DNA of 64,000 nt. Source: Dictyostelium discoideum (Eukaryota). The notes below the pieces were generated by a model, which made no database searches, was not told the origin of the DNA, and saw only the letters and a list, made by a program, of their open reading frames with translations. The DNA is taken from contig CM000151.3 in NCBI GenBank assembly GCA_000004695.1, forward strand, positions 7,680,001 through 7,744,000, read 5' to 3'. Shown piece by piece: positions 28,598-30,257 of this stretch; position 1 is the first letter of the stretch, and every line of letters starts with the position of its first letter. A program made the translations under genes and the position numbers.

Positions 28598-29727
28598 TTA
28601 ATTATTTATTGATGTTTTAATTTGATTTTGTTCATTTTTATAATAATTCCAAATAATGATTGAAGCTATAAATGTTAAAAATATTATAATTGTATTTATA
28701 AAGTAAGGTGCTTGAGGAAAAAAGAAGGGTGATTTATTTGATATAAAATACATATATATATCACCTGTGGCTAATGCACCTGAAAATTGTGCCAAACTAC
28801 CAAGTGATTGTAATCCAGTTATAATTGTTCCCTGTAGCTCTGGTGGTGTTACAATTGAAATCAATGATTGAATGAGATTTGTATTATTTGGTACAAAAGT
28901 TCCAATACCACAACCAAAAATATAATAGTACTTACTATGATTTGAAAAAATCATTAAAATATGAGAACAAAAACTAATAAAAAATCCAATTGAAATTACT
29001 TTTCTTGTTGCTTAAAAAAAATATATATATAAAAATTAGTAATAGTTTTTTTTTTTTTTTTTTTTTTTTTCATTTTAAATTGCTTACAAAAAAAATTTAA
29101 TAAAATTGGAATTCCAACAGCTCCCCATAAAATTAAAATAAAACCTAACCCACCTATAAACAAACCAATTTCTTTTGGAGTCCATGAATACATTAAAGTT
29201 GTATAATAATAATAAGTATTTGAAAAATCTTGACTTGTATATGAAATTGAAATAAATAATAAAATGATCCAAAATAATGAACCTCTTGATGAGAATAAGT
29301 CATAAATATGTTTAAAAGGATTTAATGAATTTTTTTTTTCCTTATATGTGCTATTCTTTTTTGCAATTTCTAAACTTTCTAATAAAAATGGTAATCCAAA
29401 GAAACAAACAATTAACAATCCAGCTGCAACATATAAAGTTAAATCTTGGATAGGTGACCCTGAAGTGTAAACATAAATTAAAGGACCAAATATAATACCT
29501 GATCCAATTGCAACTCCAGCCAATGAATATAACAAGGATACATGGGATTCATAAAATGAAACATCTGAAATAAATGAAAAAACAGCTGCATTTGCTACAT
29601 TATTTAATCCTGCAATACTATGACCAACATAAAAATATATTAAATTGTTTGTTTTCATTGTTACCCAACATGATAATATATCAAAAAATGTCATTACAAA
29701 ACTTAATAATAATATTGGTTTTCTTCC

Positions 29728-29796
<69 letters not shown>

Positions 29797-30257
29797 TAGT
29801 AAAATAATTATAAATTAATTATAAATTAGTTTTAAAATTAAAATATTTACTTATCAGATAAAACACCAAATAAAGGACCAAATAAAAACATTGTAAAATA
29901 TGGTATGGAATCAGAAAATGATTTATAATAAGCTGACCTTGATTGTTGTTCAGTTGGTGGTAAATGTGGATAATTTTTTTTTACAAATTCACTAAAAACA
30001 CCAGGTAAAAACAATGAATATAGATAACATGACATAATTAACAATGCATAAATTATATAAAGAAAAATTACTTGTTTTAAATATTTATGCTCCCTAATAG
30101 ATGGTTTAGTTTCAACTTCTTTTTTTAAAAGTGGGTTTTTTTCATCATATTTTTTACTTTCTTCCTTGTCTTCAATTTCATTTCCAATGATTATTATTGA
30201 ATCACCATTTTTAATACCACTTGTTTTTTGATATATTTGTTTATTATTTGGTTCCAT
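28598..30257 (-). CDS. Major facilitator superfamily transporter (HIAT1/MFSD14-like). Three exons about 29851..30257, 29088..29722(?) and 28598..29010.
   Basis: Exon 1 ends ...SIPYFTMFLFGPLFGVLSDK with a GTAAAT donor. The next coding block reads YGRKPILLLSFVMTFFDILSCWV... (MFS motif A G-x-L-s-D-k-x-G-R-K). Exon 3 is ...S|TRKVISIGFFISFCSHILMIFS... The canonical GT-AG model gives an in-frame 484-aa product but removes the YGR residues (see finding). Its 5' boundary is uncertain. Confidence 0.7.
29731..29794. repeat. 64-nt homopolymer T run (poly-A on the coding strand) in the MFS gene intron, directly abutting coding sequence.
   Basis: Direct reading. Confidence 0.95.

Follow-up and report, generated by a model that had tools for sequence, protein, structure and literature searches.

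The AX4 chromosome 2 reference of Dictyostelium discoideum most probably carries a base-call or consensus error that conceals the 3′ splice site of an MFS transporter gene: the G of the AG acceptor of intron 1, at position 29732, is recorded as A. The cause would accordingly be technical, not mutational. The window analyzed here is a stretch of 64,000 nucleotides of that chromosome (contig CM000151.3, positions 7,680,001 to 7,744,000), and all positions are counted from its first base. Sequences of the gene are given on its coding (minus) strand unless the plus strand is named, and a slash marks a splice junction.

The MFS transporter gene lies in a very AT-rich region (GC content of about 20%) and comprises three exons on the minus strand, with the ATG at 30257. 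Exon 1 (29851–30257) ends in ...GGT GTT TTA TCT GAT AA, encoding GVLSD followed by the first two bases of a lysine codon, and is followed by a GTAAAT donor (29845–29850). An earlier, sequence-only reading had placed the exon 1 end at ...GVLSDK directly before this donor; the donor and its position hold, but the lysine codon is split AA/A by the intron, which is in phase 2. The exon 1 open reading frame is also present on two independent Logan contigs. The Logan contigs that contain exon 1 approach from the exon-1 side and end about 22 nt into the homopolymer described below, and exact look-ups of the exon-2 and exon-3 open reading frames returned no match. Protein searches with exon 2 alone missed even the known exact-match cluster of this gene, so they carry no weight for or against. 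Intron 1 measures 119 nt in the window and 75–108 nt in the relatives. Its donor occupies the same place in the orthologous loci where it was located, as GTAAAT or GTAAGT. A branch-site-like motif, TACTAAT (29795–29801), stands directly upstream of the A run; its putative branch function is read from its resemblance to TACTAAC, the yeast-like consensus. Every D. discoideum-clade locus examined retains TACTAA(T/A/C).

Before the homopolymer, the intron reads ...TTTTACTAAT, and 64 consecutive A residues follow (29731–29794; T64 on the plus strand), forming the longest homopolymer of the 64-kb window. From the donor to the end of this tract, the sole G is that of the donor GT. By homology, the A64 run consists of an intronic A62 tract (29733–29794), the acceptor position 29732, and the first base of exon 2 at 29731. 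Exon 2 thus opens at 29716–29731 with the A that completes the lysine codon, followed by TAT GGA AGA AAA CCA (29716–29730), which encodes YGRKP in frame directly after the tract. The first AG downstream of the donor is found at 29723–29724, inside the arginine codon AGA and 9 nt downstream of the AG position of the relatives. Both observations of the sequence-only reading, namely a 64-nt A run that passes without an AG into in-frame YGRKP codons and a first AG that lies within the arginine codon, are therefore confirmed. The recorded intron combines the GTAAGT-like donor of a U2-type GT-AG intron (GTAAAT, 29850–29845) with AA at 29733–29732, where AG is expected, and this departure is confined to one recorded sequence and one base. 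If GAT AA is joined to the final A of the tract, a 487-aa product results, ...LSDKYGRKPILL, whereas splicing at the first AG yields an in-frame 484-aa product, ...LSDKKPILL, without Tyr137, Gly138, and Arg139. The remainder of the gene is unexceptional: exon 2 spans 29088–29731, intron 2 (29011–29087; GTAAGC...TTTTTAAG) is a normal GT-AG intron that contains an A25 run, and exon 3 (28598–29010) ends with the stop codon TAA at 28600–28598.

The codons directly after the tract complete MFS motif A, as the sequence-only reading had stated. When the protein is aligned with twelve Dictyostelium orthologues and paralogues, none departs from G138, R139, or K140, which stand in the context ...G-x-(L/I)-S-D-K-(Y/F)-G-R-K, and tblastn alignments of six paralogues pick up again at 29730, where the run has just ended. 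The 487-aa model has the motif, GVLSDKYGRKP, in the predicted TM2–TM3 loop, whereas the 484-aa model lacks it. The Pfam MFS_1 profile scores 93.3 bits against the 487-aa model and 76.1 bits against the 484-aa model without YGR, with a gathering cut-off of 33.4. The exon-2 YGRKP segment aligns to PLTGATSDCLGRRP of human MFSD10 (PDB 6S4M). Judged from these alignments, YGRKP in frame after the tract is coding sequence and not a product of chance. The transporter resembles the Tet/TCR (DHA1) branch and the eukaryotic MFSD10/TETRAN proteins in its MFS_1 match and its motif A, GxLSDxxGRKP. However, its identity to the bacterial Tet-like proteins is only about 26%, and unlike the Tet/TCR (DHA1) proteins it belongs to a Dictyostelium-specific paralogue group. 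Its best NCBIfam resemblance is to NF012174, which describes Tet(A)/Tet(B)/Tet(C), and scores 97.9 bits against an equivalog cut-off of 475, so the protein resembles this branch without being a member of it. Dictyostelium paralogues are about 50% identical to the gene, for example DDB_G0277167, which was sought in the window and lies outside it.

The 487-aa model is exactly KAM9946408.1 (ACTFIT_004715, assembly GCA_054883475.1), whose cluster has five members, all of them from new assemblies and none from AX4. An exact look-up of the 484-aa sequence in the protein collection gave no match. The AX4 proteins of the neighboring genes are present in the collection searched, but an AX4 protein for the MFS locus is not, as would be expected if the annotators had run into this splice defect.

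The orthologous locus was taken from eight assemblies, comprising the near-identical laboratory strain, four discoideum-clade isolates, D. citrinum, D. dimigraforme, and D. firmibasis. One of these, the second D. cf. discoideum strain, was left out of the intron comparison, as its donor pattern was unmatched; its annotated product, of 486 aa, nevertheless clusters with the 487-aa proteins at 90% identity. In the comparison loci, this strain uncounted, the intron ends in AG, and the exon continues with one base (A or G) that completes the lysine codon and then with TATGG, at the same position and in phase 2. The junction in the relatives is located after GA(T/C) AA. Among the D. discoideum loci, ACTFIT reads TACTAAT-A28-G/A TATGGA, ACTFIR reads TACTA-A40-G/A TATGGA, and ACTFIW reads A26-G/A, while D. 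cf. discoideum reads ...AATAAAAAG/G TATGGA. The A tract is 28 nt long in the near-identical strain and 21–40 nt long in the other discoideum-clade genomes. It is absent in D. dimigraforme, D. citrinum, and D. firmibasis, each of which has an ordinary acceptor, ...ATAG/G.

Pairwise alignment with the ACTFIT locus revealed only three differences within the gene. The intron 1 tract is 34 nt longer in the window, a homopolymer in intron 2 differs in length by 3 nt, and position 29732 is A in the window and G in ACTFIT. The comparison shows that, as recorded, the window differs from the near-identical strain by one base at this position. Among the genomes aligned, the A is private to the reference, and the AG acceptor, universal among the relatives, is shown to be the ancestral state. 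The orthologue comparison proposed in the sequence-only reading, which looked for an AG just before the YGRKP codons, therefore found it in the near-identical laboratory strain and in the other comparison genomes. That reading had also suspected a mis-sequenced homopolymer that had lost its acceptor, and this suspicion is essentially supported, except that the missing element is one base (G; C on the plus strand) and not a CT dinucleotide. Loss of the full CT/AG dinucleotide was rejected, since the run supplies the A of the AG, and the A that follows the G is intact, so that a change of one base suffices.

Window open reading frames correspond exactly to the AX4 proteins DDB_G0277177, DDB_G0277323, and XP_642718; on these matches, and on the truncated DDB_G0277187 model described below, rests the assignment of the window to AX4. 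The same sequences occur in GCA_054883475.1 (ACTFIT_). Holland et al. sequenced ten isolates with Nanopore and Illumina, of which AX2-214 is the sole laboratory strain, and the remaining isolates labelled D. discoideum are tropical (PMC12745789). ACTFIR and ACTFIW are about 89% identical to the window at the MFS locus, corresponding to a divergence of about 11%. Since AX2-214 is the only laboratory strain of the set and these two assemblies are divergent, we infer that GCA_054883475.1 (ACTFIT) is AX2-214. Ax2 and AX4 carry an identical axeB lesion (PMC4374526), which indicates a common axenic ancestor, and base substitutions arise at 2.47e-11 per site per generation (PMC7466956). With a common ancestor and such a low rate, approximately zero real substitutions are expected in 25.5 kb, and nearly all differences between the two sequences must then be technical.

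A 25.4-kb stretch of an ACTFIT contig was aligned to window positions 27128–52666 (25.5 kb). The alignment contains 33 differences, with 17 point differences and 3 small indels. Fourteen differences concern homopolymer length, and the window is longer in every one of them, by 2–34 nt; this uniform direction suggests a systematic bias of one technology. The intron 1 tract is recorded as 62 nt in the Sanger reference and as 28 nt in the Nanopore/Illumina assembly. Fifteen point or small-indel differences are clustered at 31128–31491, and the others are located at 27247, 29732, 35548, 36160, and 36476. From 36838 to 52666, the two sequences differ in homopolymer lengths only, and they are therefore of one strain lineage. 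The isolated one-base differences from the sister-strain assembly at 35548, 36160, and 36476 include one, at 36476, that lies 3 nt from the end of an A49 run. The window also holds genes for the clathrin heavy chain (chcA), a CBM49 cellulose-binding protein, a ubiquitin-like protein, and ribosomal protein S17 (37834–42627 and surroundings).

Position 29732 is not the only place near the MFS gene where the reference departs from all other genomes. Wherever informative outgroups exist, ACTFIT matches them and the window allele is unique; the aligned genomes show that reference-private defects exist in this neighborhood. Three of the five point differences outside the 31128–31491 patch lie at most 3 nt from the edge of a homopolymer of at least 32 nt. 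One of them affects a start codon. At 27247, on the plus strand, the window reads TTG immediately after an A32 run (27215–27246); the near-identical strain and four further genomes of the discoideum clade have ATG there (A run, then ATG ATT AAA). The CAP/SCP-domain gene DDB_G0277187 starts at this ATG, and its AX4 protein is annotated with 372 aa, compared with 409–410 aa elsewhere, and has lost its signal peptide. The truncated model fits the TTG recorded at the start codon, and the TTG is probably another error of the reference beside a homopolymer.

The 31128–31491 patch (about 360 bp) contains 15 reference-private differences across exon 1, intron 1, and exon 2 of a ComC_SSD-like gene, whose protein has 1013 aa in the sister assembly. 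The conserved second exon (31418–31460) was translated directly in six genomes. In five of them, it reads ...TFYINWDLRSGNICSNKGI(I/N/V)CDSTNSTTKK and then AT/GTAAAT; in the window, two 1-nt deletions break the frame, and a degraded donor, GTGTAATT, takes the place of GTAAAT. Low-quality reference sequence would look like this patch.

The position of these point differences beside long homopolymers is the pattern that slippage-blurred Sanger reads through such tracts would leave behind, and an error at 29732 may have this origin. Native intron 1 would then be a canonical phase-2 U2-type intron, GAT AA/GTAAAT...TACTAAT-A(n)-AG/A TAT GGA AGA. An error at the far edge of a homopolymer of about 60 nt in a Sanger-era reference would have turned the G of its AG at 29732 into a recorded A, so that the tract appears continuous with the codons that follow. 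The real gene would splice normally, with the cDNA junction GATAA/ATATGGAAG, and would encode a 487-aa Tet-like transporter in which motif A, GVLSDKYGRKP, is intact. Position 29732 resembles the homopolymer-edge errors of Sanger-era references in that it is the last non-homopolymer base beside a tract of about 60 nt, with similar discrepancies within 25 kb. It differs from the known cases in that its status as an error is deduced from assemblies rather than from raw AX4 reads.

Two considerations weigh against an error. The recorded A would arise by a G:C to A:T transition, which lengthens the homopolymer. In addition, a Sanger read that enters from the exon-2 side should call the C of the plus strand without difficulty; an error would therefore presuppose poor coverage in that direction. 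A search of the literature for documented error rates of the AX4 reference found no direct statement.

The main alternative to a reference error, which we regard as unlikely, is a real G-to-A change, or a loss of the G, confined to the AX3/AX4 lineage and abolishing the intron 1 acceptor. The plus strand of AX4 would then read CCATATTTTT, with no C, within 29700–29760. Splicing would move to the next AG at 29724–29723, 9 nt downstream, and would produce a 484-aa protein without Tyr137-Gly138-Arg139, with a cDNA junction of ...TCTGATAA/AAAACCA; alternatively, the intron would be retained, and translation would stop at a TAA after 136 aa. A transporter without these residues, or one truncated by intron retention, would probably be inactive, as the Gly and Arg of motif A are lost in either case. 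Such a lesion would resemble known mutations of 3′ splice-site AGs, with the next AG 9 nt downstream and an in-frame deletion of three residues, but unlike them it is a candidate read from one reference sequence. A single transition at the boundary of a homopolymer is a plausible site of misalignment mutagenesis, given the enrichment of mutations at simple repeats, and the cryptic AG is in frame. The lack of an annotated AX4 protein at the locus would also follow, as the annotators would have met the same defect. Nevertheless, the number of real substitutions expected between two laboratory strains is far below one in 25 kb, and many other reference-private defects of technical appearance occur in the same short region. 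The change from ATG to TTG in the adjacent gene is likewise located at a homopolymer edge and likewise destroys function, and two real events of this type are much less likely than a shared technical cause.

The possibility that the recorded intron is used as it stands, as a functional GT-AA intron, had been raised in the sequence-only reading and is highly improbable. Its 3′ end would be set by the boundary of the 62-nt A run, and the full 487-aa product would result. The preservation of the frame and of the YGRKP codons after the run would be explained, but the other explanations account for it equally. The relatives have an AG at exactly the homologous position, no lineage conserves AA, and the GTAAAT donor and the TACTAAT motif are those of an ordinary U2-type intron. 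The second step of splicing strongly requires an AG, normally the first one past the branch point, and in the window, the first AG after the branch point is the one at 29724–29723. A U12-type intron was also considered and rejected: the donor (A/G)TATCCTT and the branch site TCCTTAAC are absent, and the intron has no TCCTT and just two C residues.

Scarcely credible is the last suggestion, that the transporter natively lacks Gly-Arg and that the 484-aa product is its functional form: the model is in frame, with nothing else in its favor, whereas the three motif residues are invariant in all 12 Dictyostelium relatives, the exact sequence is missing from the protein collection, the Pfam score is 17 bits lower without YGR, and orthologues in the comparison genomes retain both an intact AG and the YGRKP codons. 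A protein without Gly-Arg would exist only if the G-to-A change were a real AX4-private mutation, and it would then reflect a recent lesion and not the transporter's usual condition.

Intron 1 resembles other Dictyostelium U2-type GT-AG introns in being short and AT-rich, with a GTAAAT/GTAAGT donor and an ACTAA-like branch motif. In the discoideum clade, however, the usual T-rich spacer is replaced from the branch motif to the acceptor by a pure A homopolymer (21–62 nt). In many eukaryotes, a pyrimidine tract occupies this position. Within the D. discoideum lineage, the spacer between the branch-like motif and the AG has turned into a long run of A. Evidently, 26 nt or more of pure poly(A), without a pyrimidine tract, are tolerated between these two elements in D. 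discoideum. This tolerance holds whether the A at 29732 is an error or a mutation.

The finding is a one-base reference defect, or at most a routine splice-site lesion in one laboratory strain. If the change were real, AX4 would carry a natural loss-of-function allele of the transporter that AX2 does not, a minor strain difference. The main value of the finding is as a warning about the quality of the AX4 chromosome 2 reference. A conserved MFS transporter appears to be missing from the AX4 protein set on account of one miscalled base beside a homopolymer, a second homopolymer-edge base has shortened the CAP/SCP protein DDB_G0277187 by 38 residues, including its signal peptide, and a garbled patch frameshifts an exon of the ComC-like gene. 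AX4 gene models beside long homopolymers, at least three adjacent genes here, can thus be corrupted, and they are correctable against the assemblies of AX2-214 and the wild isolates.
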